Source of the DNA: Christensenella sp. UBA6880
Lineage (GTDB): Bacteria; Bacillota; Clostridia; Christensenellales; CAG-917
Length of the DNA stretch: 64,000 nucleotides
NCBI GenBank assembly: GCA_002449145.1
Contig: DKCG01000041.1
Span: 37,791-101,790 of the forward strand
Direction: 5' to 3'
The translations under genes were made by a program, and so were the position numbers. The notes beneath the pieces are model-generated. The model made no database searches and was not told where the DNA came from. It saw only the letters and a list, made by a program, of their open reading frames with translations. Within the stretch, counting starts at the first letter, position 1; each line of letters begins with the position of its first letter. This document shows, piece after piece, positions 7,299-46,877 of this stretch.

Positions 7299-7472
7299 TA
7301 TCCGCAAAATCGCAACCGAGCGTAAACGTAAATCGCATAAGTGATTGCAAAAACGGTTGTAAAAAACGCCTAAAAGCGATTATTGCAAGGACAATTATTG
7401 CAAAAGCGATTGCAAAAGAAAAAGAAAATCGTAAAATATATAAATATATTTTGTGTTATCGGCATAAAACGC

Positions 7473-7501
7473 TTGCAATGCGCGGTTTTATGTGATACTA
7501 T
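7473..7501 (+). promoter_or_regulatory. sigma-A type promoter of the rimP-nusA-infB operon
   Basis: TTGCAA (7473-7478), 17-nt spacer, TGaTACTAT extended -10 (TACTAT 7496-7501). Predicted +1 near 7508, giving a 90-nt leader before the rimP ATG. Confidence 0.6.
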
Positions 7502-7526
7502 TTAGATACTATAGTAAAACCTTACT

Positions 7527-7555
7527 AGAGTGAGCGACGGCTCACTCTTTGTTTT
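7527..7555 (+). terminator. leader stem-loop / intrinsic terminator-like attenuator upstream of rimP-nusA
   Basis: 9-bp perfect stem AGAGTGAGC/GCTCACTCT with loop GACG, followed by TTGTTTT. A second hairpin, GACGATT...AATCGTC (7563-7583), abuts the SD. Confidence 0.6.
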
Positions 7556-7597
7556 AGAAGGGACGATTCGACAAAAATCGTCTTTAAGAGGTGCTGT

Positions 7598-8074
7598 ATG
7601 GCAAACGAAATTGCGGTTGAAGTCCGCGAAAAAGTGAAGAATCTCGCTCTCGAAGCGGTAAACGAAGCGGACGAGAATATCGAACTCGTGGACGTGGCGT
7701 TCTACAAGCAGTACGGAAAACTCACCGTCGAGGCTCTTTTGTGGAAGAAAGAAGGAATCGACCTTGACGACTGCGAAAAGGTGCATAATCTGCTTTCTGC
7801 AAAACTCGATTCGATAGAGGACGATTTCGACGACGATTACGTTCTGAACGTTTCCTCGCAAGGTCTCGACAGAAAAATCGTGACCAACGACGATTTCAGA
7901 CGCGCGCTCGACACCGAAATCGAGGTTTTCGACAAAAACAAGAAAAAATCGCACGGAACGCTTTTGAGTTTCGACGACGAAAACATCGTGATAAAAACCG
8001 ACGGAAAAAATCCGAAGGAAGTTAAAATACAAAGAAATTTATTGACCAAAGTACAACCATACGTCAGGTTTTAG
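7598..8074 (+). CDS. rimP: ribosome maturation factor RimP
   Basis: 158 aa with an SSQGLDRKI motif (RimP SSPGLDRPL-like). Immediately upstream of nusA. Confidence 0.9.
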   Translation: MANEIAVEVREKVKNLALEAVNEADENIELVDVAFYKQYGKLTVEALLWKKEGIDLDDCEKVHNLLSAKLDSIEDDFDDDYVLNVSSQGLDRKIVTNDDFRRALDTEIEVFDKNKKKSHGTLLSFDDENIVIKTDGKNPKEVKIQRNLLTKVQPYVRF

Positions 8075-8086
8075 GAGGACATAACA

Positions 8087-9157
8087 ATGATTAACAAAGA
8101 GTTCTTTCAAGCATTGGACGATCTTGAAAAGGAACAACGCATTCCCAAAGAGTCAATGATTGAATCGATCGAAGCAGGGCTTGTGTCCGCGTACAAGAAA
8201 GAATACGGCTTTGCAAGTCAGATTTCCGTTCGTCTCAATGAGGAAAAAATGACCTACAAAGTGTACGCGCACAAACTCGTCGTGGACGAAGTCGAAGACG
8301 AGGAATCTCAAATTTCTCTCGAAGACGCGCAAGACATCGACAAAAAGTACAAAATCGGCGACGTAGTCATCGAAGACATCACGCCCAAGGACTTTTCTCG
8401 TATCGCAGCGCAAACCGCAAAACAAGTCATTTTGCAACGCATCAACGACTATAAGAAGGAACTCGTGCTCAACGAAATGAGCGAGCGCACGGGCGAAATC
8501 CTCAGCGCAATCGTAAGAAGAAAGGAAGGAAACACCGTCTACGTTGAAATCACCGGCACGCAAATGGAAGGCGTTATGATGCAACAAGACCAAGTTCCCA
8601 CCGAAACGTACAACGTGAACGACGTCATCAAAGTGTACGTCAAGAAAATCCGCGACGGTATGCACGGCGCACAAGTGGTCGTGTCGAGAAGTTCGGCGGG
8701 CTTCGTTCGCAGACTCTTTGAACTCGAAGTTCCCGAAATCAAGGCGGGACTCGTCAAAATCAACAGCATCGTTCGCGAAGCGGGATTCCGCACCAAACTC
8801 GCAGTGTCGAGCGAAGACCCCAACGTCGACGCAGTCGGAAGTTGCATCGGTAACAAGGGCGTCAGAGTCAACGCGGTCGTTGCGGAACTCGGCGGCGAAA
8901 AGATCGACGTCATCGAATATTGCGACGATCCTATCGAGTATATCGCTCGCGCGCTTTCGCCCGCACAAGTGCTTATGGTTTCCATCAACGAGGAAGAAAA
9001 GAACGCAAAGGTTATCGTTCCCGACGAGAAACTCTCGCTTGCAATCGGCAGAAGCGGTCAAAACGCTCGTCTTGCGGCAAAACTTACCGGCTGGAAGATA
9101 GACGTCAAACCTTATTCCACGCTCAAAGTAGACGAGCAAGAAGTGCAAGGTGAATAA
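8087..9157 (+). CDS. nusA: transcription termination/antitermination factor NusA
   Basis: 356 aa with an S1 domain plus two KH domains (IGNKGVRVNAV; IGRSGQNARLAAKLTGWKIDV). Conserved operon position. Confidence 0.96.
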   Translation: MINKEFFQALDDLEKEQRIPKESMIESIEAGLVSAYKKEYGFASQISVRLNEEKMTYKVYAHKLVVDEVEDEESQISLEDAQDIDKKYKIGDVVIEDITPKDFSRIAAQTAKQVILQRINDYKKELVLNEMSERTGEILSAIVRRKEGNTVYVEITGTQMEGVMMQQDQVPTETYNVNDVIKVYVKKIRDGMHGAQVVVSRSSAGFVRRLFELEVPEIKAGLVKINSIVREAGFRTKLAVSSEDPNVDAVGSCIGNKGVRVNAVVAELGGEKIDVIEYCDDPIEYIARALSPAQVLMVSINEEEKNAKVIVPDEKLSLAIGRSGQNARLAAKLTGWKIDVKPYSTLKVDEQEVQGE

Positions 9158-9158
9158 A

Positions 9159-9407
9159 ATGTCCTATCCCAAGAACACCCGAAAATGCGTCGTGTGCAAG
9201 GAACACGCCGACAAGTCCGAAATGTTGAGATTCGTCAAAGACAAGGACGGAAAAGTGTTTCTCGACCGCTCGCAAAAAGCGGACGGCAGGGGCGTTTGGG
9301 TGCATAATTGCGAGGACTGCATACAAAAACTTATCAGAAAAAAGACTCTCAACGCCGCGTTCAAACGCAACGTCGGCGACGAGATATACGGTGAGATAAA
9401 TGAGTAA
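9159..9407 (+). CDS. ylxR: YlxR/RnpM family RNA-binding protein (DUF448)
   Basis: RKCVVCKEHADKSEMLRFV signature. ATG 9159 lies after an AAGGTGA SD (the track ORF begins at GTG 9150, inside the nusA end). Confidence 0.85.
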   Translation: MSYPKNTRKCVVCKEHADKSEMLRFVKDKDGKVFLDRSQKADGRGVWVHNCEDCIQKLIRKKTLNAAFKRNVGDEIYGEINE

Positions 9408-9672
9408 AATCGGTGCTTACGTCGGACTTGCGCAACGCTCGGGTTCGGTGCTTTACGGCGAAGATATTATTTGCGAGAAGAAAAACCTCGCAAAAGTCGT
9501 GCTCGTTTCATCGACCGCAACCGATAAGTATAAAGAAAGGATATTGAAGAAGATGAGTTGTCCCGTGTATATCGTGGACGGTCTTGGCGAGGCTTTGCAC
9601 CGCGAAGGTGTCAACGCAATCGCCATAACTAACGACAATCTCGCAAAAGCGGTTGTCGGTGTATTGAGGTGA
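9400..9672 (+). CDS. ylxQ: L7Ae-family RNA-binding protein YlxQ
   Basis: 90 aa with an L7Ae/L30e-like sequence, located between ylxR and infB as in Bacillus. Overlaps the ylxR stop. Confidence 0.82.
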   Translation: MSKIGAYVGLAQRSGSVLYGEDIICEKKNLAKVVLVSSTATDKYKERILKKMSCPVYIVDGLGEALHREGVNAIAITNDNLAKAVVGVLR

Positions 9673-9674
9673 AT

Positions 9675-12377
9675 ATGCCCGAAAACAAAAAAGAAACAAA
9701 CGTCGATTCCATAAAAATGCTCGGCGAGTATAAGGCGACCAAACTTGCCGAACTTTCCGAAAATATCTCTCGTCAAAAGTCGAGAGCAGCCGTGATTATG
9801 GCTTCTATCAAGGCAAAACGCGACGAACTCGTGCAAAAGGCAGAGCAAATCGAAAAAGCCAAAGAAGAAGCGAAAGCGGTCGAAAAGGCAAAGTTTGAAG
9901 AAGTCGAGAACAAAATCGAACGTGAATCAGAAAAATCCGTCGAAAAGGTTAAGACGCAGGAAACGCCCGTAGTCGAGTCTAAGGTCGAGGTCAAAACGGA
10001 AAAGGAAACGAAAGTCGAAAAACAGGTCAAAAAAGACGATACTTCCGCTTCCGAAAAAGAGACCGTAAAAGCCGAAGAAAAGACGGAAAAGAAATCCAAG
10101 CAGGACGAAGCAAAGAAGTCGCGTATTGCGGTCGTTCCCAAAACGCCTTTCGAACTAGCGCAAGAGAATCCCGAAATTTTGCCTAACGGCGAAGTGCGCA
10201 GGATTTACGTTCCGCCGACGCCGAAGCCGAAGGTTACGACGAGAGTGTTTGGACAAGGCGGTTATCAACAACCGCGCGGACCGAAGCCGCAACAAAACGG
10301 TCAAGGTCCAAGACCGCAAGGACAAAATCAAGGTCAAAACGGCGGTTTGAGACGTTCGTCGTCGCAAAGCGTTGCCAACGCCGCGCAGCAATTTCCTCCT
10401 AAACCTGCTGCGCAAAAGGGCAAGGGCGGCAAACAAAACTCAAACAACGGTTCGAGCAAGTTCGACGATAAGTCAACGATGAACAAGCGCGCGCTTATGA
10501 AACGCGGCTATCTCGTCGACGACAGAATTTCATACGACGAGGACGGCGAAGCAATCGTTCGCAACTACAAAGTCAACAAGAACAGAGGCGGTGGCAACAG
10601 CGCAACCGTTATAATCGAAAACGCGGTTATAACCACCGACCCCGTTTCCATCAAAACTTTGAGCGAAAAAATCGGTAAATCCGCCGCGGAAATCGTCAAA
10701 ACGCTGTTCGTTCTCGGCATTATGAAGACAATAAACGACAGCATCGATTTCGCTACTGCGGAACTTGTTGCCGACGAATTCGGAATCAAACTCGAATATA
10801 AGCCCGACGTGACTCTCGAAGATACGCTCAGCGCGCAACTCGAAGTGGACGACGTCGAAGAACTCGAAAATCTCGTTCCGCGTCCGCCTATCGTCACTAT
10901 TATGGGTCACGTCGACCACGGCAAAACTTCGCTTCTCGACTACATCAGAAAGTCGAACGTCACGGGCGGCGAAGCGGGCGGCATTACGCAACATATCGGC
11001 GCGTATACCGTTACGCTCAACGGCAATCCCATTACGTTCCTCGATACCCCCGGTCACGAAGCGTTCACGTCGATGCGTGCTCGCGGCGCGCAAGTTACGG
11101 ATATTGCTATTCTGGTCGTTGCGGCGGACGACGGCGTTATGCCTCAGACGCTCGAAGCAATCAGCCACGCAAAGCAAGCAAAAGTGCCTATCATCGTCGC
11201 TATGAACAAGATGGACAGAGCGGGCGCAAATCCCGACAAGGTGCTTTCGCAACTCGCAGAAAACGGCGTTACACCCGAAGAATGGGGCGGCGATACGCCC
11301 GTCGTGCGCGTGTCTGCAAAGACCGGTATGGGCGTTGAAGATTTGCTCGAACAAATCCTCGTACGCGCAGAAGTGGAAGAATTGCGCGCAAATCCCGACA
11401 GAAACGCAAGAGGCACTATCGTCGAAGCAAAACTTGACAAAGGTCTAGGCAAAATCGCAACTATACTCGTTCAAACGGGTACGTTGCACGTCGGCGATAA
11501 CGTCGTCGCCGGAACTTGCACGGGTAAAATCCGCGCTATGATCGACGATAAGGGCAGAAAGGTCAAGAAAGCAGGTCCGTCTATGCCCGTTTCGGTCACC
11601 GGTTGGGACGACGTTCCCGAAGCAGGCGACAGAATCGACGTCGTTGCTGACGAAAAGTTCGCAAGAGAACTCGCAGAAGAAAGAAAACTCAAACTCGCCG
11701 CAAGTCAAACGGAATCTACGTCCGTTTCGCTCAACGACTTGTTCGACAAGATTTCAAAAGGCGAACTCAAATCCGTCAAACTCATAATCAAAGCGGACGT
11801 TCAAGGCTCGGTCGAGGCGGTCAAGCAATCTCTTGCCAAACTCGGTAACGAGGAAGTCAATATCGACATCATTCACGCGGCTGTCGGCGGTATCAAAGAA
11901 AGCGACGTTTTGCTTGCGGAAACTTCAAACGCAATCATCATCGGATTCAACGTTCGCCCCGACAACAACGCAAAACAACTCGCCGCGCAAAAGAAAATCG
12001 ACATCAGATTCTACAACATCATTTACAACGCAATCGAGGACATCGAAAAGGCGGTCAAGGGTATGCTCGATCCCAAATTCAAAGAGGTCGTTCTCGGTTC
12101 TGCGGAAGTGCGTGAATTGTTCAAGATCAGCGGCGTAGGCACTATCGCAGGTTGCCACGTCATCGACGGCAAAGTCGTTCGCGGCGCGCAAGCACGTCTT
12201 ATCAGAAACGGAAAAGTCGAGTATACCGGCGAAATCGCTTCCTTGCGCCACGGCAAAGACGACGTCAAGGAAATGGCAAAAAACTTCGACTGCGGCATAA
12301 TGCTGTCCAACTTCCAAGATGTCAAAGTGGACGACGTAATCGAAGCGTTCACGATGGAGAAAACAAATGAAGATTAA
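9675..12377 (+). CDS. infB: translation initiation factor IF-2
   Basis: GTPase motifs [20 protein letters not shown] and NKMD. Low-complexity Lys/Glu and Gln/Gly-rich N-terminus. ATG 9675 follows a GAGGTG SD. Confidence 0.97.
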
Positions 12378-16452: not shown

Positions 16453-16500
16453 GTAATATTAATTTGACATCGTAAAATATCAATTTTAACATCGACAAAG

Positions 16501-16526
16501 TAGCGTCCACACGTACGCTATTTTTA
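16501..16526 (+). terminator. possible intrinsic terminator after the endonuclease IV-like gene
   Basis: TAGCGT/ACGCTA 6-bp stem with an 8-nt loop, followed by TTTTTA. Lies 49 nt after the stop codon. Confidence 0.4.
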
Positions 16527-16822
16527 TAACATAAAATTTTCCAAGATTTTCAAATTAGCAAGCGGGTAGAAAGAAAAGTTAAACTTCAAAATTAAAAAAA
16601 AGTTTGGCAAAAGAGGATGTCAAACTCAAAATTCAGTAGAAGTCCAAAACTCAAAAGTATATCGGTAGAGTGCAACGTTATAAAAATTAGACATTGAAAC
16701 AAAATTTTTCGCGAAAGAAGGGGAAATTTTGATGCTTAACCCGTATAGAAACTATTCGTAAAATCGCAGCTTTACGCAGAGAAAGCGATAAAATATGCAC
16801 TAAATAGAGGATTTTCAAAAAT

Positions 16823-16862
16823 CGCATTTATTTGTAAAATATTTTACAAATTCTAATATGCG
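16823..16862. repeat. perfect 20-bp palindrome with flanking 5-bp arms, T-runs on both sides (bidirectional-terminator-like)
   Basis: TTTGTAAAATATTTTACAAA (16831-16850) is its own reverse complement. CGCAT (16823-27) pairs with ATGCG (16858-62). Followed by TGTTTTTT and preceded by TTTTCAAAAA. Confidence 0.8.
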
Positions 16863-17185
16863 TGTTTTTTGAATTTCGATTACTTGAGTTTGCGACCGAT
16901 TTTACGGATCGATTTTAAGCTGATTTTCACCGCTTGTTTTCGGTGTTTTTGACCGATTCTATTATGTAATTTTTTTGTATTATTCGTTACAACTCATATA
17001 TTGTGCCGAAAAACCGTCGATTTATCTATCGTTTTACGAGGATTTTCGACGGCATTTTTGGTTTATGACCGTGCAAATTTTTACGTTTAATCCGCATTTT
17101 TAACGTTATATTACGGTTATTTTCGAGTTTTTTTTGAGATTTTAAGCGATTTTTCGGTGGCTTTTTAGCAATCTTTTGCGAGGCA

Positions 17186-24268: not shown

Positions 24269-25632
24269 TTTTCCTCCTTATGTCCGAAAAGGGACGCCGA
24301 TTTTGATTCGGTTATTCTCACGTCGAAAAATTTGCCTATATCGTCTTTGCTGCCCTGAAAAGTGACGAGCCTGCCGCCGTCTTCTCTGCCGCAAACCATA
24401 CCGTCGAGTTTTGGCGCGACGTCCTCGCAAAGCACTCTGTACACGCCGCCGATGTAGGTTTTTGAAATCTCTTTGGTTATAGAGTTTTGAAGTTTGATAA
24501 GGCGCGCGATTCGCTCTTGCTTAACCGCGTACGGTATCTGTTCCATTTTAGCGGCGGGCGTGCCTTTTCTCGGCGAATAAATGAATGTAAAAGCGTTTGA
24601 ATAGCGCACTTTTTTCACGATCTCGAGAGTGTCTTGGAAATCTTCTTCCGTTTCGGTCGGGAATCCGACCATAATGTCCGTGGTTATGCCGATGTCGGGC
24701 ATACGTTCGCGCAGTTTTTCGATGATTTGAAGATATTGCGCGCTGTCGTAGCGTCTGTTCATATTTGCAAGCACCTTGTCCGAGCCTGCCTGAATTGGAA
24801 GATGCAGATTGTGACAAACGTGTTTCGATGTCGCCATAGCGTCGATAATATCGTCGTTGAGGTCCTTTGGGTGCGACGTCATAAAACGAACGCGAAAATC
24901 GTCGTCGATTTTGTCTATTTCGCGCAATAAATTCGCAAAATTCACCTTTTCGTCTGCTACGTCGTTGCCGTACGAGTTGACGTTCTGACCGAGAAGCGTT
25001 ATCTCTTTATATCCGTTTTCGACGCACTTTTTCACCTCGTCGAGCACGTTTTGCATATCGCGCGAAACCTCTCTGCCTCTGACGTACGGCACTATGCAGT
25101 ACGTGCAGAAGTTGTTGCAGCCGTATATGATGTTCACCCACGCGTTGGGATAACTCGTGCGGGTTTGCGGCGTATTTTCGTCCACGTCCAGATAATCCGA
25201 CGGCTGATTTACGTCGAAACAGCGGTATTTTTTGTCGCTGCGCTTTTTGATTTTCGCTCTGCCCTCGACAACCTTTTCAATTTCGTCTTTAAGCGCGGAA
25301 ATGTTGCGAGTGCCCAAAACTATATCGACGTACGGGAATCTTTCTTTGATGTTCTCTTTCACGCCGTCTTGTTGCGGCATACAGCCGACGACCGCAAGAA
25401 TAAGATTCGGATTGCGTTTCTTTTCCGCTTTCGTCACGCCTATATTGCCGAGCGCGCGGCGTTCGGCAGTGTCGCGAATACAACAAGTGTTGAAAACGAT
25501 TATGTCTGGATTTTCGTCTTCGGGACAATCGATATATCCCATTTTTTCGAGAATACCGGCGATTTTTTCGCTTTCGTGAACGTTCATTTGACAGCCGTAC
25601 GTGTTGATTTTGTAGAATTTCGTCATTTGCAT
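24265..25632 (-). CDS. miaB: tRNA-2-methylthio-N6-dimethylallyladenosine synthase
   Basis: 455 aa. UPF0004 N-domain YGCQMN, radical-SAM GCNNFCTYCIVP, TRAM C-terminus. 4-nt overlap with the mutS start. Confidence 0.93.
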   Translation of the reverse strand: MQMTKFYKINTYGCQMNVHESEKIAGILEKMGYIDCPEDENPDIIVFNTCCIRDTAERRALGNIGVTKAEKKRNPNLILAVVGCMPQQDGVKENIKERFPYVDIVLGTRNISALKDEIEKVVEGRAKIKKRSDKKYRCFDVNQPSDYLDVDENTPQTRTSYPNAWVNIIYGCNNFCTYCIVPYVRGREVSRDMQNVLDEVKKCVENGYKEITLLGQNVNSYGNDVADEKVNFANLLREIDKIDDDFRVRFMTSHPKDLNDDIIDAMATSKHVCHNLHLPIQAGSDKVLANMNRRYDSAQYLQIIEKLRERMPDIGITTDIMVGFPTETEEDFQDTLEIVKKVRYSNAFTFIYSPRKGTPAAKMEQIPYAVKQERIARLIKLQNSITKEISKTYIGGVYRVLCEDVAPKLDGMVCGREDGGRLVTFQGSKDDIGKFFDVRITESKSASLFGHKEEK

Positions 25633-37000: not shown

Positions 37001-38377
37001 TCACTTCTTCACTATGACGGTTACGTCGAGCGGCTTGTTTGCAAGTCGAATATATTTAGTTCCCTCGATTCGAGTGCTTCCGAGATATATTTTCGTATCG
37101 TCGCCGCGTTTTATGTGCATATTATGCTTTACGCCGTTGTTTGAAAACACGACGTCCGCGCTGTCGATATTGTCGGGCAAATGCGGCGATATGCGCAACA
37201 CGTCGCCGAACGTGGAAATTCCGAAATTCAAATTATCAAACTTGTATATAGGCTCAAAAGTATTCTCAAAATCGACTAATTTTGAAATACTTTTGTTCTC
37301 TTTCGTTGATTTCTTGTCGAAAAACACTCGCATAAAGAAATCCGAACTCAACGCCGCGCCGAGCATTGAGATGTCCTTTTTGTGAGAAAGAATACAAATC
37401 GATTTATTGAAAAAATCCGCCTTTTTCACTTTGCTATGCCCTGCCGACGCACTTTGCATATACTTCTCGACTCGGATTGCATACATAAACTCGTCGAGGT
37501 TTTCCTTTTCGCTCAAACTGCTTGCAAGCGACAAAAAGCCGAATTTTTGATTTTCGGTCGCATTTTCAAAACAATCGAATTTATCGTATATTTCGAGCGG
37601 CGTATAGTATCTCGAAAAATCGAAATTCAGCACGGATTCCGCACTGTCGCAAAGTCTCGAATAGGTCATATACAAACCGTCGATAACGCCGTCGAGGCTC
37701 TCTTTGTCCTTCTTTTGATAATTCGATTCGAGCATACAGAGTTCTAAAAACAGTTTCGATTTTGAAAAACTTTTGTATTTTTTGTTATCGAACGCCATTC
37801 CGTTGTCTTTAACGTATTTTTTTGCAAGATTCATCGCCTTTGCAACCGTATTCAAGTTTTCGAGAACGAAATAGATTTTTTCGAGAATAACATACAAAAA
37901 CGCTTCTTTCATCGTCGTTATCTCGGCAAAAGTCAGCGTTTTTAGCCTATTATGTTCGTTTGCAAGCGTTTTGAATCTGTCCTCGACGAAAATCCAGCCC
38001 GTAGAAGCGAGGCAAAATCTTGCAAGTTCCACCGCTCTCGGCTTGCCGTTTACGCTCGGATTGTCGCAAAGCGCGACGAAATCTATTTTGCAAATTTTAT
38101 CGACAATCTGCCTATCCTCGCAAAACGTCGAGAATATCCCTTTATATTTTTTGTTTTTCAACTTGAAAAGCAGCCGTTTTATATGCCTTTTGTACTTTTT
38201 GTCCTCGATTTCGCTTCCCTTGTCGGGCGATTGAAAATCGAATACGAGAAGTTTGGATTTTCCCTCGTACTCGGCGTTCGTAAGCACGGGAAAATACACC
38301 TCTTTGGGATTCTTTTTCAAAATCATATATACGATGAAAAACACCGTAACGACCAATATCGTCAATGCGTACGCCAT
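37001..38377 (-). CDS. hypothetical membrane-anchored protein (orphan, AT-rich)
   Basis: 458-aa ORF with one N-terminal TM (ALTILVVTVFFIVYMIL) followed by KKNPKE. Sampled 60-nt windows are 28-42% GC versus about 50% in pheS. No catalytic motif recognised. Confidence 0.6.
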   Translation of the reverse strand: MAYALTILVVTVFFIVYMILKKNPKEVYFPVLTNAEYEGKSKLLVFDFQSPDKGSEIEDKKYKRHIKRLLFKLKNKKYKGIFSTFCEDRQIVDKICKIDFVALCDNPSVNGKPRAVELARFCLASTGWIFVEDRFKTLANEHNRLKTLTFAEITTMKEAFLYVILEKIYFVLENLNTVAKAMNLAKKYVKDNGMAFDNKKYKSFSKSKLFLELCMLESNYQKKDKESLDGVIDGLYMTYSRLCDSAESVLNFDFSRYYTPLEIYDKFDCFENATENQKFGFLSLASSLSEKENLDEFMYAIRVEKYMQSASAGHSKVKKADFFNKSICILSHKKDISMLGAALSSDFFMRVFFDKKSTKENKSISKLVDFENTFEPIYKFDNLNFGISTFGDVLRISPHLPDNIDSADVVFSNNGVKHNMHIKRGDDTKIYLGSTRIEGTKYIRLANKPLDVTVIVKK

Positions 38378-38476: not shown

Positions 38477-38796
38477 GCGAGTTAGCCGAACGGTCGCGTG
38501 AAATATTGAGGAAAGTCCGAGCATCACAGGGCAAGGGTGCCGGGTAACTCCCGGTGAAGGCGACTTCAAGGACAGTGCAACAGAAAAAAACCGCCGCGTA
38601 TGCGGTAAGGATGGAAAGGCGAGGCAAGAGCTCACCCGCAATTTGGCGACAATGCGCGATGTAAACCCCACTCGATGCAAGATCGGGAGTACGAAATGCG
38701 GCCCGCAAACTCCCCACATCGCTTGAAACGTGCAGAAATGTACGTTGTAGATAGATGACCGTTTAAGACAGAACTCGGCTTACAGACTATCTCGCA
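38477..38796 (+). ncRNA. rnpB: RNase P RNA (bacterial, type A-like)
   Basis: Universal motifs GAGGAAAGTCCGAGC (38508-22) and ACAGAACTCGGCTTA (38768-82). P1 pairing GCGAG (38477-81) with CTCGC (38791-95). GGTAACTCCCGG and AGGACAGTGCAACAGAAA blocks. Confidence 0.9.
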
Positions 38797-38801
38797 AAAT
38801 G

Positions 38802-39002: not shown

Positions 39003-40694
39003 TTATTTCAAAGAATCCTTGTATCTTTGCGCGTTTGCTTTCATCTCTTTTGCGTGCGGCACGGCGTATATCGAATAGTCGTTTCCGCCGATAAGCCTTG
39101 CCACTTCGTCCGTATCGTCCTCGAGCAAATCGACGTGAGTCAACGTCTTGCCGTTTTCGGTGGACTTCGAGATGAGATAGTGATTGTCCGCCATAGAAGC
39201 GAGCGACGGCATATGCGTCACGGCAATGACTTGTCTTGCACGTGAAATGTTACACATCTTTTCGGACACTACCTGCGAGATATTGCCCGAAATTCCGGTA
39301 TCTATCTCGTCGAAAACCATAGTGCCGATGTCGTCAACGCCTGCGAGAATGTTTTTGAACGCAAGCATAAATCTTGACATTTCACCGCCCGAAATTATCT
39401 TCGCAAGCGGTTTTAATGGCTCGCCGACGTTTGGTGAAATCATAAATTCCACGCTATCCGCGCCGTTTGCGGATATTTGGTCAACGTCGTCCGTCGTTTC
39501 GATTTCGACTTTGAACGTCGAACCGCCCATACCCAAATCGCAAAGTTCTTTCGTGATGTCTTTTTCAAACTTATCTGCGATTTTACGTCTTTCCTGCGAG
39601 AGTTTTTTCGCGCTTGCAAGCAACTTTTCGGCGGCGACTTTAATTTCTTTTTCGAGTTGGTCCACTCTTTCGGTTGCGTTCGAGAGCGTTTGCGCTTCTT
39701 TGGTCGCTTCTTCATAGAATCTTTGCAATGATTCGTAGCTTCCGCCGTACTTGCGCAAAATCGTGCGCACTACTTCCAACCTTTCCTCAATCTGCTCTGC
39801 CGAGCGCGAATCGAAGTCGAGTTTTTGAAGCATATCCGAAAGAGTTTCGGATATATCCGTAATTTCAACCTTGCAAGAATCCAACCTATCCACGATAGGC
39901 GCGATGTTTTCGTCGTATGAAGAAATTGTGTTCAAAAGCGAGTTTGCGTTCTTTATGGACGCGCTCACGCTTTGAGAATCGTATCCGTCCAAAAGGTTTT
40001 TCGCACCTTCGAGCGCGGATATGATTTTTTCCATATTGCGAATACGCTTGCGAGCGGAAAGGAGTTCGTCTTCCTCGCCTTCTTTTACGTCCGCTTTTTC
40101 GATTTCGTCAATCTGGAAGGATAAAATATCGAGTTTTCTCTCTCTTTCGTCGGCGTTTCCGAATCTGGAAAACTCTTTTTTGAGCGACGTGTATTCGGCA
40201 AAATCCTTTTCGACTTCGCCCTTTACCGTCGCGATTTTCTTTTCGCCGAGTTTGTCGAGAAGTTTGATATGATTCGCGCTTTTAAGTAGCGATTGATGTT
40301 CGTGCTGACCGTGAATATCGACGAGAAGTTCGGTAAGGCTTTTGAGTGCTGACAAAGTGGAAATTCTACCGTTTATTCTGCACTCGTTTTTGCCGTCCGC
40401 ACTCATTTTTCTGCGCAAAATAAGCACGTCTTCGGCTTCGATTCCCAAATCGTCGAGACAATCCTTTACGGCCGGCGTAAGATAATCCTCGAACACCGCC
40501 TCTACGCTCGCCTTGTCCGTACCGAAGCGAATGAGGGATTTATCCGCGCGCTCGCCCAACACGAAATTGAGCGAGTCGATAATAATCGACTTACCCGCAC
40601 CCGTTTCGCCGCTCAAAATATTCAACCCGTTTTTGAGTTCGAGTTCGAGTTTATCGATGAGCGCGATATTTTCGATTGAGAGTTGGCAAAGCAT
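39003..40694 (-). CDS. recN: DNA repair protein RecN
   Basis: 563 aa. SMC-like Walker A GETGAGKSIIIDSL, coiled-coil middle, C-terminal signature/Walker B (SGGEMSRFMLAFK...VFDEIDTGISG). Confidence 0.96.
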   Translation of the reverse strand: MLCQLSIENIALIDKLELELKNGLNILSGETGAGKSIIIDSLNFVLGERADKSLIRFGTDKASVEAVFEDYLTPAVKDCLDDLGIEAEDVLILRRKMSADGKNECRINGRISTLSALKSLTELLVDIHGQHEHQSLLKSANHIKLLDKLGEKKIATVKGEVEKDFAEYTSLKKEFSRFGNADERERKLDILSFQIDEIEKADVKEGEEDELLSARKRIRNMEKIISALEGAKNLLDGYDSQSVSASIKNANSLLNTISSYDENIAPIVDRLDSCKVEITDISETLSDMLQKLDFDSRSAEQIEERLEVVRTILRKYGGSYESLQRFYEEATKEAQTLSNATERVDQLEKEIKVAAEKLLASAKKLSQERRKIADKFEKDITKELCDLGMGGSTFKVEIETTDDVDQISANGADSVEFMISPNVGEPLKPLAKIISGGEMSRFMLAFKNILAGVDDIGTMVFDEIDTGISGNISQVVSEKMCNISRARQVIAVTHMPSLASMADNHYLISKSTENGKTLTHVDLLEDDTDEVARLIGGNDYSIYAVPHAKEMKANAQRYKDSLK

Positions 40695-40739
40695 AATTCA
40701 CCGCCTTCGACGAATGTCAAAAAGCAAATACGTTCGTGA

Positions 40740-41210
40740 TTAATAAAGTCTGTTCGCTTCGAGCAAATCTTCGAGACGTCTGCGTATCATATCGACGTGT
40801 TCGAGAGAATCCACCGCAACGAAAATCGTGTTGTCGCCCGCGATAACGCCGAGAACTTCGTCATACGACAGTTTGTCGATAAGTTCCGCGGCAGGACCTG
40901 CGCTGCCCGTTTCCGTTTTGAGAACTACGAGATTGCCCGTGCTCTTTATGGAAACGACAGTGTTTTTGAACATACTCAAAAATTTGTCTGCGGCACTTGC
41001 CTCTTTCGTTTGTTGCGCGGTGTATTTATAATGTCTGCCGTCGCTCGATAGAGTTTTGATAATGCCCATTTCCTTGATGTCGCGCGACACGGTGGCTTGG
41101 GTCACCGAAAAGCCTTCGCTGCGAAGGTAATCCACAAGTTCTTCTTGCGTGTCGACGTCGTGCTTTGAAATGATGTCCAAAATTTTGAGTTGTCTGTTTG
41201 CTCTCGCCAT
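40740..41210 (-). CDS. argR: arginine repressor
   Basis: 156 aa. Winged-helix N-terminus (VTQATVSRDIKEMGI), C-terminal oligomerisation domain (GVIAGDNTIFV). argR-recN synteny. Confidence 0.94.
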   Translation of the reverse strand: MARANRQLKILDIISKHDVDTQEELVDYLRSEGFSVTQATVSRDIKEMGIIKTLSSDGRHYKYTAQQTKEASAADKFLSMFKNTVVSIKSTGNLVVLKTETGSAGPAAELIDKLSYDEVLGVIAGDNTIFVAVDSLEHVDMIRRRLEDLLEANRLY

Positions 41211-41221
41211 AATAATTCACC

Positions 41222-42025
41222 TTATCCTCTGGGATCGACTAAACCCCATCTGTTCATTTTTTGAAGCAATTTCTTGAAGAAATTGTTATCTTTGGTTGCC
41301 AAAAACTTTACGTTTCGAGCGGATTTTTCAACGAAAACGCTCTTTTCGCCCTCGATATTCGCAACGTTCTCGCCGTCGGCGCACACGAGTGCTTTTTCGC
41401 CTTTTGCAAGTCGCAATTCGATTTTGGATTGCGCGTTCACGACGAGCGGTCGAGAATGTAAAGAGTGCGCGCATACGGGGATAATCACGAGCGCGTCAAC
41501 GTCGGGCGCAAGCACAGGACCGCCTGCAGACAGCGAATACGCCGTAGAACCCGTCGGCGAAGACACGATTGCGCCGTCGCTGTGGTATGAATCGACAAAC
41601 TTTCCGTCAACGTAGACGCCGATATAAATCGGGCGCGAAGTCGCGCTTTTAAGCACGATTTCGTTGAGTGCTTTCCCGCAAAAATCGTCGAAGCGCACGT
41701 CGAGCATCGCTCTTTTCTCGATTTTGCCTTCTAAAATCCCGTTTGCGATTTCGCTTGCCGAAGAATCCTTTTCAAACTGTGTCAAAAATCCGAGATTTCC
41801 GATGTTTACGCCCGTTACGACGACATCTTCTCTTACGTCTTTCACCGCTTCGAGAACCGTTCCGTCACCGCCGAAAACGATCAGATTGCTGCAATCGGAC
41901 GGAATATTTTTCCCGTCCTCGATCTCGAATATGTCAAATCTATCGTCGGCTTTGAGCAAAGCGACGATATCGTTCATTTCCTTTGAATATTCGGCTTTCG
42001 TGAAAATTGCGATTTTCGTTTTCAT
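41222..42025 (-). CDS. nadK: NAD kinase
   Basis: GGDGT motif (IVFGGDGTVLEA), NadK-like throughout. ATG 42025 (MKTKIAIF) is preferred; the track start 42031 is a TTG lying at the predicted transcription start. Confidence 0.9.
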   Translation of the reverse strand: MKTKIAIFTKAEYSKEMNDIVALLKADDRFDIFEIEDGKNIPSDCSNLIVFGGDGTVLEAVKDVREDVVVTGVNIGNLGFLTQFEKDSSASEIANGILEGKIEKRAMLDVRFDDFCGKALNEIVLKSATSRPIYIGVYVDGKFVDSYHSDGAIVSSPTGSTAYSLSAGGPVLAPDVDALVIIPVCAHSLHSRPLVVNAQSKIELRLAKGEKALVCADGENVANIEGEKSVFVEKSARNVKFLATKDNNFFKKLLQKMNRWGLVDPRG

Positions 42026-42036
42026 AATCAAGAGGC

Positions 42037-42065
42037 ATTATACAACATCGAAAGTTTTTATTCAA
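42037..42065 (-). promoter_or_regulatory. candidate promoter of nadK-argR-recN (near-leaderless)
   Basis: - strand: TTGAAT (42065-60), 17-nt spacer, TATAAT (42042-37). Predicted +1 near 42030, only about 5 nt before ATG 42025, with no SD. Confidence 0.5.
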
Positions 42066-42091
42066 GTATAAAACGAAGTTTTATTGAATAA
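42058..42091. repeat. AT-rich 14-bp interrupted inverted repeat overlapping the nadK -35 element
   Basis: TTATTCA(agt)ATAAAAC-GAA-GTTTTAT-TGAATAA: 7+7 bp with a 3-nt bulge. Sits between the divergent promoters. Confidence 0.7.
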
Positions 42092-42157
42092 TTGCATATT
42101 TTCGGCGATTTTATGCAAAGCGGAATTTGCGGCGATTTGCAACTTTGCCTCTATCGA

Positions 42158-42185
42158 TTGACATATTTGCTCGCTTTTGTATAAT
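42158..42185 (+). promoter_or_regulatory. near-consensus sigma-A promoter for a leaderless mRNA
   Basis: TTGACA (42158-63), 16-nt spacer, TATAAT (42180-85). Predicted +1 = 42192, which is the A of the ATG of the small ORF. Confidence 0.65.
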
Positions 42186-42191
42186 TGAGGT

Positions 42192-42515
42192 ATGTTTAGT
42201 TTGGTTTTATCCATATCCGAATTCGCAACGAAACTCGTCGCCGGACTGTCCGGCACTATTTTTGCGTTGCTGATTTTAGGACTCGCTATCGGCGCAAGAA
42301 ATCGTGTTCCGAAGAATATAAATCCCGACGAACTCAAACGCAAGGCAAAGGACGCTCCCGAAGTCGAAAACACGGACAAGAAAGGCAAAAAATCCAAATC
42401 CGACAAATCGAAAAACAAAGCGGAATCGACCGATAATAAGCAAGATAAATCCGATACCAACGAAAATAACGCCGACAACTCATCGAAAAAGGAAGAAGCG
42501 GTAGACAAAAAGTAA
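42192..42515 (+). CDS. small membrane protein with a Lys/Asp/Ser/Asn-rich disordered tail
   Basis: 107 aa. Hydrophobic N-terminus (LSGTIFALLILGLAIGA), then a tail ...KKGKKSKSDKSKNKAESTDNKQDKSD.... Purine-rich coding strand like other genes here. Has its own promoter and terminator. Confidence 0.55.
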   Translation: MFSLVLSISEFATKLVAGLSGTIFALLILGLAIGARNRVPKNINPDELKRKAKDAPEVENTDKKGKKSKSDKSKNKAESTDNKQDKSDTNENNADNSSKKEEAVDKK

Positions 42516-42565
42516 AACGCAATCAAATAATCGAAAATGGCGACAAATCGAAATACGATACAAAA

Positions 42566-42596
42566 ATGACGTCTCAAACGGACGTCATTATTTTTT
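42566..42596. terminator. bidirectional intrinsic terminator shared by the small + ORF and tlyA
   Basis: AAAA-ATGACGTC-TCAAACG-GACGTCAT-TATTTTTT. The 8-bp stem abuts the tlyA stop codon (42588-90). Confidence 0.8.
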
Positions 42597-43307
42597 CATA
42601 TAGAGCAAATATTCGATGTTTTTGTTCTCGTAGCGTATGGGCGAAGTGGACAAATCCAGTATTTTGAAGCCGACGTTTTGCGCGTATTCGGTGACGTTAT
42701 TCACCGCTTTTTTTCGTAGTTTTTCGTCGGTAACGATACCGCTTTTGTTGAGCGCGGATTTGTCGAGTTCAAATTGCGGTTTGATAAGCACGACCGCCTC
42801 GCCGTCCGTTTCGAGCAAATCGAACATAGATTTCAAAACGTACGTCAAAGATATAAAACTCACGTCACTGCAAAGAAAATCGACTTTTTCGAGGTTATGC
42901 GGCAGTTCTCTAGCGTTCGCTTTCAAAAATTCGACCTTACCCGATTCGAGAAGCCTATTTTCGAGCGCGCAGTCGGCAACGTCTACGGCAAGCACGCGCT
43001 TTGCGCCGTGACGAAGCAGACAATCGGTAAATCCGCCGTTCGAACAACCAATATCCGCGCAGTATTTTCCCTCGACGTTAAGGTTAAAGTCGCAAAACGC
43101 TTTTTCGAGTTTATACGCCCCTTGCGAAGCGTAATTTTCGTCGTTTACGATTTGCACATCGTCGCTATCCGTTACGTCGGTCGAGGATTTTGAAACGATT
43201 TTACCGTTTAGAGTCACTCTACTCGTTTTTATAAGATTCTCTGCGTATGTGCGGGATTTTAGATTGAATTTTTCTTGAATATACCTGTCTATTCTCATAT
43301 GATTCAA
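42588..43307 (-). CDS. tlyA: TlyA-family rRNA 2'-O-methyltransferase (S4 domain + FtsJ-like)
   Basis: 239 aa. S4-like N-terminus (RIDRYIQEKF...SRTYAENLIK), SAM-binding CADIGCSNGGFTDCLL. Confidence 0.9.
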   Translation of the reverse strand: MNHMRIDRYIQEKFNLKSRTYAENLIKTSRVTLNGKIVSKSSTDVTDSDDVQIVNDENYASQGAYKLEKAFCDFNLNVEGKYCADIGCSNGGFTDCLLRHGAKRVLAVDVADCALENRLLESGKVEFLKANARELPHNLEKVDFLCSDVSFISLTYVLKSMFDLLETDGEAVVLIKPQFELDKSALNKSGIVTDEKLRKKAVNNVTEYAQNVGFKILDLSTSPIRYENKNIEYLLYMKK

Positions 43308-44213: not shown

Positions 44214-44239
44214 ATGCACCTCAAAATAAAATTCTATGT

Positions 44240-44814
44240 AATGGTGGCAACGTCTCGGGTAAACCTTGCGCCATAGGTTCGGTAGGTTTTCCCTGACTCA
44301 AAACTCGTCGTCGCCGTCCGAGAAGTTTCCTATCATATGAGTCATCTCAAAGAGAAACCGAATCGCCACTTAGAGCACACTATAATCCCCGAGTCGCCTC
44401 GCAAGAACAGTCTAGAAGATTTCCTTGACAGATTCCGCCCGCCCTTATCTTTTTTTGCAAAGAGGATTTCACAAGGCGATCGCCCGTCGTTGTTGCGCAA
44501 CGCCGACGAGCGTGGTTCCTTGATCCCTCCAAATCACTCAAAGCAGGCTACACTGTACACAGCGCAGTTGCACCGCATATCAGGTTTAACCCCGGTCAGT
44601 AGACGATTTTGCGCGACTACCGAGTCGGGTCTCCACGGAAATTGGGTCGGGTTTCGTATGCCGTTACAAGCCGCCCAAAGTCCTTAACTCCCAGCAACAG
44701 CCCCGATTTGGGCAAAAGAAGCCATCACCAGAAACTTCATCGATATGCCCTTCGGCGATATTTTACCCCCGCCTCCGAGTCGGTGGAATCTGACTAGAAT
44801 ACTGCACCACCATT
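44240..44814 (-). ncRNA. large (~575 nt) structured non-coding RNA, best candidate: OLE (ornate, large, extremophilic) RNA class
   Basis: No credible - strand ORF, 50-60% GC. The predicted +1 is the first base of a 10-bp terminal helix (44805-14 with 44240-49; two G-U pairs form only on the - strand). Nested 8-bp helix 44785-92/44429-36. GNRA hairpin 44390-401. Context is oapA-like-tlyA-nadK-argR-recN. Confidence 0.65.
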
Positions 44815-44820
44815 AATTAT

Positions 44821-44848
44821 ATTATATCAAAAAAAAGAAATATGTCAA
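44821..44848 (-). promoter_or_regulatory. near-consensus sigma-A promoter driving the large RNA
   Basis: - strand: TTGACA (44848-43, immediately after the recG TGA), 16-nt spacer, extended -10 TGaTATAAT (44829-21). Predicted +1 = 44814. Confidence 0.7.
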
Positions 44849-44849
44849 C

Positions 44850-46877
44850 TCAACTGTTGAGTGTGACCGAATTTATGGTATCCAAAAACGCATCGATTTT
44901 GGATTTTGACGTCCTCGTAAGTGTCAAAAGTTCGTTCAGCGAAAGATTTGAAAGGAATTTGTCGGCGTATTCCTTTGCGTTAGACAATATTTGCGCGTTT
45001 ACTTCGAGAGAAAACATAGGCGTAAGCGAGCGACCGCTCTGTTTTACGCCCAAAAAGTCGCCTGCGCCGCGCATTTCGAAGTCCACTTCGGCAAGATACT
45101 GTCCGTCGTTGGATTTTTCAAGCGTTTGAAGCCTCTCGATTGCCTTTTCGCCTTTATTTGAGGAATGTAATATACAATGCGCTTCGCTTCCGTCTCTGCC
45201 CACTCTGCCTCGAAGTTGGTGCAAAGAAGAAAGTCCGAATCTGTCCGAATTCAAAATGAGAATTTCCGTTGCCTTGGTGTCGATTCCCACTTCGATAACG
45301 CTCGTTGCGACCAAAAGCCTCGTATTGCCTTGCGAAAACTCGGTCATTGCGCGTTCTTTCTCCTCGTTTTTGAGTTTTCCGTGAATGACAGAAACGGGAA
45401 AATCATCAAATAGATTGCCGAAATCACGCATAAAACTCTCAATCGACATAAGGTTGTTGCCCTCTGCGTCGAATATGGACGGACAAACGATAAACGCTTG
45501 CTTGCCTTCTTTGAGTTTGCGCACGATAAACTCTACCGACGATTGCAAATCTTCGTATACGGACGTTATCACGTTCGTTTGCGCTTCCGCTCGTTTTTCT
45601 ATGCGTGAAATGGCAATATTCTCGTAAAAAGTGAGTGCCATCGAGCGCGGAATAGGCGTTGCGGTGAGGCTCAACACGTCGCACGCACCCTTTCTTTCCA
45701 ACTTTGCTCTGTCGTTTACGCCGAATCTGTGCTGTTCGTCTATAACCGCCAAAGCGAGATTTTTGTATTCAACGTCGTCGGACACAATCGAATTTGTGCC
45801 GATAACGCATTGATAATATCCGTTTTTAAGTCCTGCAAGCACGTTCTTTCTCTCGCTTTGCGTGCAAGAACTCGTAAGCAACGCAAATCTTATGCCCGTT
45901 GCCTTTGCCACTTGCGCAAACTTCTTTGCGTGTTGAGTTGCAAGTATTTCGGTTGGTGCCATAAGCGCGGCTTGTTTTCCGCCTTTTGCCGCCGCGCACA
46001 TCGCAAAGAACGCAACGGCGGTTTTGCCGCTTCCAACGTCGCCGCTAATTATTCTCGACATATATTCGCTTGAGCGCATATCCGACATAATATCTTCAAA
46101 CGCCTGCGTTTGAGAGTCTGTCGGGGCGAAAGAAAGTGTATTTATGTAGTCAACTATTCTAAAATTGTCGAAATTATAAAATACTTTTCTCGCTTTTTGA
46201 GCGTTATTGCGCAATTTTCGGTATATTGACAGAACGATTGAAAGGTCGAGCGATGCAAGCGAATCTATCGCCCTTTCGGCAATATTTATGCTCGTAGGCC
46301 TGTGCGCCGCCTCGAAACACAACGCGAAATCTTTGTTGATTTTGGCAAGATTGCCTTCATACGTTGCGCCTTTCACGCTGTCGAGCGCAGAGTAAACGAT
46401 ATTCTTAAAAGCGTTCTGCCCCATCGTCGAGCCGAGCGGATAAAGCGTGTATATTCCGTCGAGTTTTGAAATCTTTTCGATTTTTTCAAGCGAAGGATTT
46501 ACGACTGTGAGCGAGCCTTGATCGTTTGAAAGCCTCGTGAGCAGTCTGTACGACTGCCCGACGGAAAATCCGTCGTGCAAGAACGGCATATTGTAAAACA
46601 TCGCCTTGAAATAGATTCTGTTGTTTGCAAGGTTGTCGCTGAATATGACGAAAAATGACTTCGTTTTCGAGCGAGTCACGTTCGATACGCTCTCTACTCT
46701 GCCTTCGAGCAACACGAGTTGTCCCGCTTGCGCGTCGATAACTTTTATAGGACTTTTAAGATCGATGTACTTGCGCGGTAAAAAAGAAAAGACCTCGAAT
46801 ACGGAATGTATGTCAAGGTCGTTAAGTTTTTTTATCGTTGCGTCACCGACGCCCTTCACATCGCGCAACGTAAGCAT
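44850..46877 (-). CDS. recG: ATP-dependent DNA helicase RecG
   Basis: 675 aa. Wedge/OB N-terminus, helicase motifs GDVGSGKTAVAF, DEQHRFG, TATPIPR, QLRGRVGR. Confidence 0.96.
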   Translation of the reverse strand: MLTLRDVKGVGDATIKKLNDLDIHSVFEVFSFLPRKYIDLKSPIKVIDAQAGQLVLLEGRVESVSNVTRSKTKSFFVIFSDNLANNRIYFKAMFYNMPFLHDGFSVGQSYRLLTRLSNDQGSLTVVNPSLEKIEKISKLDGIYTLYPLGSTMGQNAFKNIVYSALDSVKGATYEGNLAKINKDFALCFEAAHRPTSINIAERAIDSLASLDLSIVLSIYRKLRNNAQKARKVFYNFDNFRIVDYINTLSFAPTDSQTQAFEDIMSDMRSSEYMSRIISGDVGSGKTAVAFFAMCAAAKGGKQAALMAPTEILATQHAKKFAQVAKATGIRFALLTSSCTQSERKNVLAGLKNGYYQCVIGTNSIVSDDVEYKNLALAVIDEQHRFGVNDRAKLERKGACDVLSLTATPIPRSMALTFYENIAISRIEKRAEAQTNVITSVYEDLQSSVEFIVRKLKEGKQAFIVCPSIFDAEGNNLMSIESFMRDFGNLFDDFPVSVIHGKLKNEEKERAMTEFSQGNTRLLVATSVIEVGIDTKATEILILNSDRFGLSSLHQLRGRVGRDGSEAHCILHSSNKGEKAIERLQTLEKSNDGQYLAEVDFEMRGAGDFLGVKQSGRSLTPMFSLEVNAQILSNAKEYADKFLSNLSLNELLTLTRTSKSKIDAFLDTINSVTLNS

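Follow-up and report, generated by a model that had tools for sequence, protein, structure and literature searches.

The window analysed here, a stretch of DNA of 64,000 nucleotides, contains a gap of 636 nt (44214-44849) between the stop codon of recG and the next gene on the minus strand, which raises the question of what this spacer encodes. Within 44214-44849, no minus-strand open reading frame (ORF) of at least 70 codons was found. The GC content of the gap is 48.6%, that of the RNA at 44240-44814 is 51.7%, and local 300-nt intervals reach 52-54%, compared with 23-48% (mostly 23-42%) in the other spacers of the window and 46.5% across the window as a whole. A first-pass annotation of this DNA had described the gap as lacking a credible minus-strand ORF and as richer in GC than other spacers; both observations hold, although its figures of 50-60% against about 30% slightly overstate a real contrast.

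The whole 64-kb window was scanned with the complete set of 4227 Rfam families, each at its curated threshold, and the covariance-model scan returned two matches, OLE (RF01071) and the class A RNase P RNA (38478-38798). The OLE match runs from 44826 to 44228 on the minus strand with a score of 412.5 bits (E 9.6e-118), where the curated gathering score is 50 bits, and covers model positions 1-616 of 616 without truncation. ROOL, GOLLD, raiA, tmRNA and all other Rfam families gave no match above threshold elsewhere in the window. Sequence blocks invariant in OLE RNAs are found in the RNA, among them GUGGUGCAGUAUUCUAGUCAG, AUCGAUGAAG, GUUAAGG, CCGUGGAGAC, GGGAUUAUAGUG and GGGAAA.CCUAC, and its single-sequence minimum free energy is -205.9 kcal/mol (z = -2.35). 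The first-pass annotation had favoured an OLE-class ribonucleoprotein (RNP) locus and had proposed the RF01071 search, with ROOL, GOLLD, raiA and tmRNA as control families. The end-to-end match, controls below threshold, and an OapA-type gene directly downstream, followed by tlyA-nadK-argR-recN, bear this preference out. Judged from its sequence, the recG/oapA spacer is a full-length ole gene from an uncultured member of the gut Clostridia, with a probability of about 0.97. The OLE class (ornate, large, extremophilic), bacterial RNAs of ~600 nt that bind OapA, the membrane protein encoded beside them, is already known, and the copy in the window is an ordinary, typical full-length member of it. 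The coordinates of the RNA, its elements and the adjoining genes are collected in Table 1.

Table 1. Position of the OLE RNA, its structural elements, its promoter and the adjoining genes in the window.
Feature	Position	Strand	Remarks
OLE RNA, full-length type, about 575 nt (predicted +1 to P1 3' end)	44240-44814	-	RF01071, covariation
Sigma-70-type promoter: TTGACA 44848-44843, 16-nt spacer, extended -10 TGaTATAAT 44829-44821	44821-44848	-	12/12 match
P1 5' strand AAUGGUGGUG	44805-44814	-	pairs with 44240-44249; 10 pairs
P2 5' strand CAGU-AUU-CUAG, holds CUAG palindrome	44794-44804	-	pairs with 44408-44415
P3 5' strand CAGAUUCC	44785-44792	-	pairs with 44429-44436
P4 hairpin, conserved A-rich loop GGGGUAAAAUAU	44754-44773	-	UAAAA invariant in 50 sequences
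AUCGAU palindrome, P4a region	44739-44744	-	kept as AUCGAU or AUCGGU
Distal P9 hairpin (approximate coordinates), apical loop UUGCGCAA 44493-44500, self-complementary GCGC 44495-44498	44481-44512	-	
P3 3' strand GGAAUCUG	44429-44436	-	pairs with 44785-44792
P2 3' strand CUAGACUG	44408-44415	-	pairs with 44801-04 and 44794-97
Long-range domain 2 helix, 5' strand GGCGACUCGGG	44388-44398	-	pairs with 44249-44259; Rfam consensus pairing
P12.2/P13 region, GNRA loop GCGA 44311-44314	44301-44325	-	present and conserved
P1 3' strand UGCCACCAUU	44240-44249	-	pairs with 44805-44814
oapA ribosome-binding site GAGGUG, 3 nt 5' of ATG (44213-44211)	44217-44222	-	kept in close relatives (columns 787-792)
oapA, 298 aa	43317-44213	-	four hydrophobic segments, DxxxD, CNNM similarity
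recG, upstream neighbour	44850-46877	-	
Downstream cluster tlyA 42588-43307, nadK 41222-42031, argR 40740-41210, recN 39003-40694	39003-43307	-	

The consensus line of the Rfam family leaves P1-P3 unannotated, and these helices were therefore tested separately. With the downstream protein as the query, 78 related genome loci were fetched, and 50 distinct OLE sequences with their flanks were aligned. In P1, 91% of the cells are paired and four of the 10 pairs carry compensatory changes, with its two G-U pairs varying as UG/CG/UA and GU/GC and never breaking. P3 has compensatory changes at six of its eight pairs. P2 is 99.5-100% paired yet invariant, and hence uninformative for covariation. Considered jointly with a 3-bp extension, the three helices are paired in 91.6% of cells, against 31-49% when the partners are slid by 1-3 columns; 13 pairs show compensatory changes, and the observed values were reached by none of 500 shuffles. 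The terminal and nested helices had been drawn beforehand at exactly these coordinates, with covariation suggested as the check, and they come through it, P1 and P3 being supported and P2 remaining invariant. An independent RNAalifold run yielded 141 consensus pairs, with compensatory changes at 82, and recovered P1, the first P2 segment and P3, giving the second P2 segment (UUCUAG) another partner; with both segments invariant, the two pairings of the second are equally compatible with the data. Covariation among the relatives supports P1, P3 and most internal helices of the predicted fold. In published work, a partial OapA-binding site has been mapped 'in or near P2', and P3 is proposed as a membrane-spanning helix (PMC12265935).

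The motifs for protein binding and dimerisation are all present in the RNA, namely the P2 and P4a palindromes, the P13 GNRA loop, the A-rich L4 and the self-complementary P9 loop. The A-rich P4 loop forms a dimer contact in cryo-EM structures (PMC12286853), the palindrome of the P4a region is the second mapped OapA-binding site (PMC12265935), and the P13 GNRA region is the known OapB-binding site (PMC9723947). The P9 apical loop, identified by cryo-EM as a kissing-loop dimer contact with GGCC, GAUC and AGCU reported (PMC12286853), carries GCGC in 12 of the 50 sequences, which are the window and its 11 closest relatives, and GGCC (UGGCCA) in 33. Passing from GGCC to GCGC takes two changes that jointly preserve self-complementarity, a pattern that fits an intermolecular kissing contact. 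In the long-range domain 2 helix, alignment columns 574-584 pair with 736-746, and both sides have changed in 12-24 sequences at several pairs.

Local hairpins and a repeated octamer had also been read from the single sequence. The sequences themselves are present, including three copies of the octamer CGACUCGG, but the hairpins at 44390-401 and 44614-27 are unconserved in relatives and compete with covarying pairings. Both were rejected as native folds, since the bases of CGAG-GCGA-CUCG (44390-401) covary in the 44388-98/44249-59 helix and those of CGACU-CGGU-AGUCG (44614-27) belong to a longer hairpin at about 44590-44630. A further hairpin, placed at 44474-99, did not come out as drawn; the consensus has its hairpin at about 44481-44512. 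Three copies of CGACUCGG fall in the 575-nt RNA, against five in the whole 64-kb window counting both strands. They lie at 44389-44396, 44620-44627 and 44775-44782 on the minus strand, each in a separate helix of which it occupies the 5' strand, and only the closest relatives have all three. No pairing partner shared by the copies was found, and the triple occurrence is treated as incidental.

The -35 hexamer of the promoter starts 1 nt past the recG stop codon (44852-44850), and within the -10 element TG lies at 44829-28 and TATAAT at 44826-21. The region contains nine promoter-like sites against 2.9 expected, of which TTGACA-16-TGaTATAAT is the sole perfect one. In the 50-sequence alignment, neither hexamer shifts in any member of the recG-OLE clade, while the flanking sequence diverges; such positional conservation is better functional evidence than a consensus match alone. 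Previously described as near-consensus, the promoter is in fact a perfect 12/12 match with TG, and its position is kept clade-wide. The predicted +1, at 44814, is the first base of P1. In B. halodurans, a promoter close to the gene drives high-level OLE transcription, and the 5' ends of the RNA were mapped experimentally to the beginning of P1 (Wallace et al. 2012, PMC3413148). A consensus promoter of its own had been listed as setting the RNA apart from OLE, a distinction removed by the equal geometry of the B. halodurans promoter (PMC3413148).

No terminator-like site was found on the minus strand in the interval from the RNA to the next gene, in agreement with the first-pass annotation, and only 26 nt, the GAGGTG ribosome-binding site included, separate the P1 3' strand from the oapA ATG. 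The RNA and oapA are therefore very probably co-transcribed, and these two features would suit a region acting mainly as a cis-acting 5' leader of the oapA mRNA rather than as a stable independent RNA. This explanation is nevertheless very improbable, given that the B. halodurans OLE is a single, very stable, abundant species acting with OapA (PMC3413148), and that the approximately 140 conserved base pairs, together with the protein-binding and dimerisation motifs, go well beyond the needs of a leader. For the OLE RNA, the promoter and the missing terminator are consistent with an abundant, stable, discrete, membrane-localised transcript.

A second alternative, proposed earlier as the fallback, is a large structured RNA of an undescribed class, similar to OLE only in its size and neighbouring genes. 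It retains next to no credibility and is rejected because RF01071 matches end to end, with the invariant OLE blocks present, and because the OapA-type gene and tlyA-nadK-argR-recN lie downstream. Protein coding, for example by the 116-aa antisense ORF at 44337-44687 on the plus strand, is just as implausible and the ORF was rejected as a gene: the frame exists and most relatives have long antisense open frames, but their longest open frame is unstable in length (61-182 codons) and differs in frame label, which is only indicative as the count starts at the end of each individual sequence, the substitutions compensate base pairs and are not codon-patterned, and the indels are not multiples of three.

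The gene downstream of the OLE RNA is assigned by its sequence to the OapA type. Its product displays four hydropathy peaks, the DxxxD motif as DIVGD at residues 192-196, a lysine-rich patch ahead of the first transmembrane segment, and a basic C-terminal tail. Comparison with PF01595 (CNNM) gave 28.2 bits (E 1.8e-6), just under the cut-off of 28.4, and OapA proteins are expected just below the CNNM cut-off (PMC11332333). The best PDB match, a weak one (E 0.33), is CorB 7M1U, which has been named as the structure closest to OapA (PMC11332333). The four segments, DIVGD, the basic patch and the position after ole are shared with OapA, itself kin to the CNNM/DUF21 domain of the MpfA/CorB Mg2+ transporters. 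Unlike the homologues in short-OLE loci, which have about 169 residues and lack it, the 298-aa protein carries a charged N-terminal extension of about 100 residues that is rich in K, D, S and N and varies in length within the clade. An identical OapA protein is encoded on 24 or more metagenome contigs.

The genes upstream follow the order yicC-gmk-rpoZ-coaBC-priA-fmt-rsmB-(radical SAM gene)-rsgA-rpe-rpmB-asp23-fakA-recG, in which the radical SAM gene is probably rlmN, and which we take to resemble the ylo region of Bacillus subtilis. In about 65 of the 78 related loci, OLE directly precedes an oapA homologue in the same orientation. Among the loci L005-L046, most of those with sufficient contig reach retain the order asp23-fakA-recG-OLE-oapA-tlyA-nadK-argR-recN, down to 54% RecG identity. 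The adjacency to recG and the missing ispA and dxs had been counted as differences from OLE; the arrangement is common to a whole clade of gut Clostridia genomes, so that a recG-OLE junction lacking ispA and dxs is the clade norm and not a peculiarity of the window. A full-text literature search, with the 2006 and 2011 papers outside its scope, returned no published statistics on recG adjoining ole. One related OLE copy, L007:21-130 at the start of contig URTQ01000034.1, departs sharply from all close relatives over roughly its first 100 nt, which span the promoter and P1-P4, and is nearly identical to them in the rest; a chimeric contig end or local recombination is the probable cause.

The window matches metagenome contigs, and the nearest genomes are gut metagenome-assembled genomes (MAGs) labelled uncultured Clostridia, Clostridiales or Christensenella sp. 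The host would accordingly be a mammalian-gut anaerobe of the Bacillota, with anaerobiosis deduced from taxon and habitat. It is not an extremophile, and anaerobes are within the known host range of OLE. No oapB and no ybxF-type oapC were found in the 64-kb window, with no KOW or L7Ae Pfam match among the approximately 55 ORFs scanned. OapB (YbzG, with a KOW domain) and OapC (YbxF, of the L7Ae family) are normally encoded elsewhere in the genome, in translation operons.

Fernando and Breaker (2024) catalogued 2,822 OLE genes in GTDB Bacillota and divided them into full-length RNAs and two reduced variants that are characteristic of uncultured clades from the gut, variant 1 corresponding to the TANB77 clade and variant 2 to the RF39 clade (PMC11332333). 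With full-length OLE (RF01071), the window RNA has in common a length of about 575-600 nt, all model positions, P1-P3, the A-rich P4 loop, the AUCGAU and CUAG palindromes, the P13 GNRA site, the downstream oapA, a proximal promoter and a Bacillota anaerobe as host. It differs in the P9 loop, which is GCGC instead of the common GGCC and still self-complementary, in one small domain 2 hairpin about 10 nt shorter than in the RF01071 model, and in having recG as upstream neighbour instead of xseAB-ispA, cited as typical in the first-pass annotation. Variants 1 and 2 belong to the same family and likewise occur in uncultured gut bacteria; unlike them, the window RNA possesses the P7-P9 region and the OapB site and scores 412 bits. 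Scanning of 12 loci with a short OapA or a formerly undetected OLE gave OLE RNAs of 480-500 nt and 207-246 bits in 10, a size that fits variant 2.

Minimal OapA homologues of 169-175 aa follow short OLE RNAs in the loci L062-L077, from MAGs labelled Bacilli, Tenericutes and Muribaculaceae. These short RNAs were missed by single-sequence nhmmer with the window RNA and were found only by the covariance model. The taxon labels of several bins are implausible (Bacteroides, Muribaculaceae, Phascolarctobacterium), and mis-binning is the probable cause.

Other elements of the window were also recorded. The 556-nt gap between tlyA and nadK contains a 107-aa ORF on the plus strand (42192-42515) with an N-terminal hydrophobic segment and a tail rich in K, D, S, N and E. 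Its N-terminal 46-56 residues are conserved at over 20 related loci (43-85% identity), no Pfam match was found for it, and it appears to be the real gene of this gap, on the opposite strand. The 171-aa minus-strand ORF at 42062-42577 was rejected as a gene, being F/L/S-rich, without a family match and broken in frame in relatives. Homology between the tail of the 107-aa protein and the OapA extension was likewise rejected, the likeness being one of composition only. The RNase P RNA of bacterial class A (38478-38798, plus strand, 244 bits) lies between recN and a 458-aa ORF (37001-38377) for which no family match was found. A 90-aa ORF on the plus strand (9400-9672) lies after nusA, between ylxR (9150-9407) and infB (9669-12377); it has no Pfam match and shows weak full-length similarity to B. 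subtilis YlxQ (PDB 3v7q, E 0.015). The product is probably the kink-turn-binding member of the L7Ae family that the nusA-infB operon encodes, paralogous to OapC/YbxF. No rimP, expected before nusA, was identified in the window. The long spacers at 16453-17185 (733 nt), 24269-25050 (782 nt) and 7299-8086 (788 nt) contain no family-matching ORF and no Rfam match at the gathering threshold, and no Pfam match was found for the 98-aa ORF at 24634-24930 or the 176-aa minus-strand ORF at 7502-8032.

A mechanism for the locus can be proposed from published OLE work in Halalkalibacterium halodurans and two Clostridium species. The OLE RNA would be abundant and stable, transcribed from its own promoter, with read-through supplying the oapA mRNA, and would fold into two domains. 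Dimerisation would occur through the A-rich P4 loop, contacts of the P5/P6 loops and the self-complementary P9 apical loop, and OapA dimers would bind the palindromes near P2 and P4a and thereby bring the RNA to the membrane, perhaps with P3 across the bilayer, as in the published dimer and membrane model (PMC12286853, PMC12265935). Further partners in the RNP would be OapB, bound at P13, and a protein of the L7Ae family bound at the kink-turn, OapB and OapC being described as OLE partners (PMC9723947). The RNP would aid tolerance of alcohols, cold, excess Mg2+ and poor carbon sources, of which ethanol and cold phenotypes have been reported for OLE (PMC3413148).

The locus deserves annotation as ole-oapA rather than as an empty spacer beside a 'hypothetical membrane protein'. 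Beyond annotation its import is small, as thousands of OLE copies have been catalogued in Bacillota, gut lineages included. The double change from GGCC to GCGC, which keeps self-complementarity, lends the published kissing-loop dimer contact independent support from comparative data, and the clade shows that the OapA N-terminus tolerates long disordered additions. It is conceivable, if unlikely, that the clade has added components of its own to the OLE particle, namely the OapA N-terminal extension and the conserved 107-aa single-pass membrane protein. If so, together with the GGCC-to-GCGC switch, the clade would offer a natural variant for dissecting the assembly of the OLE RNP.
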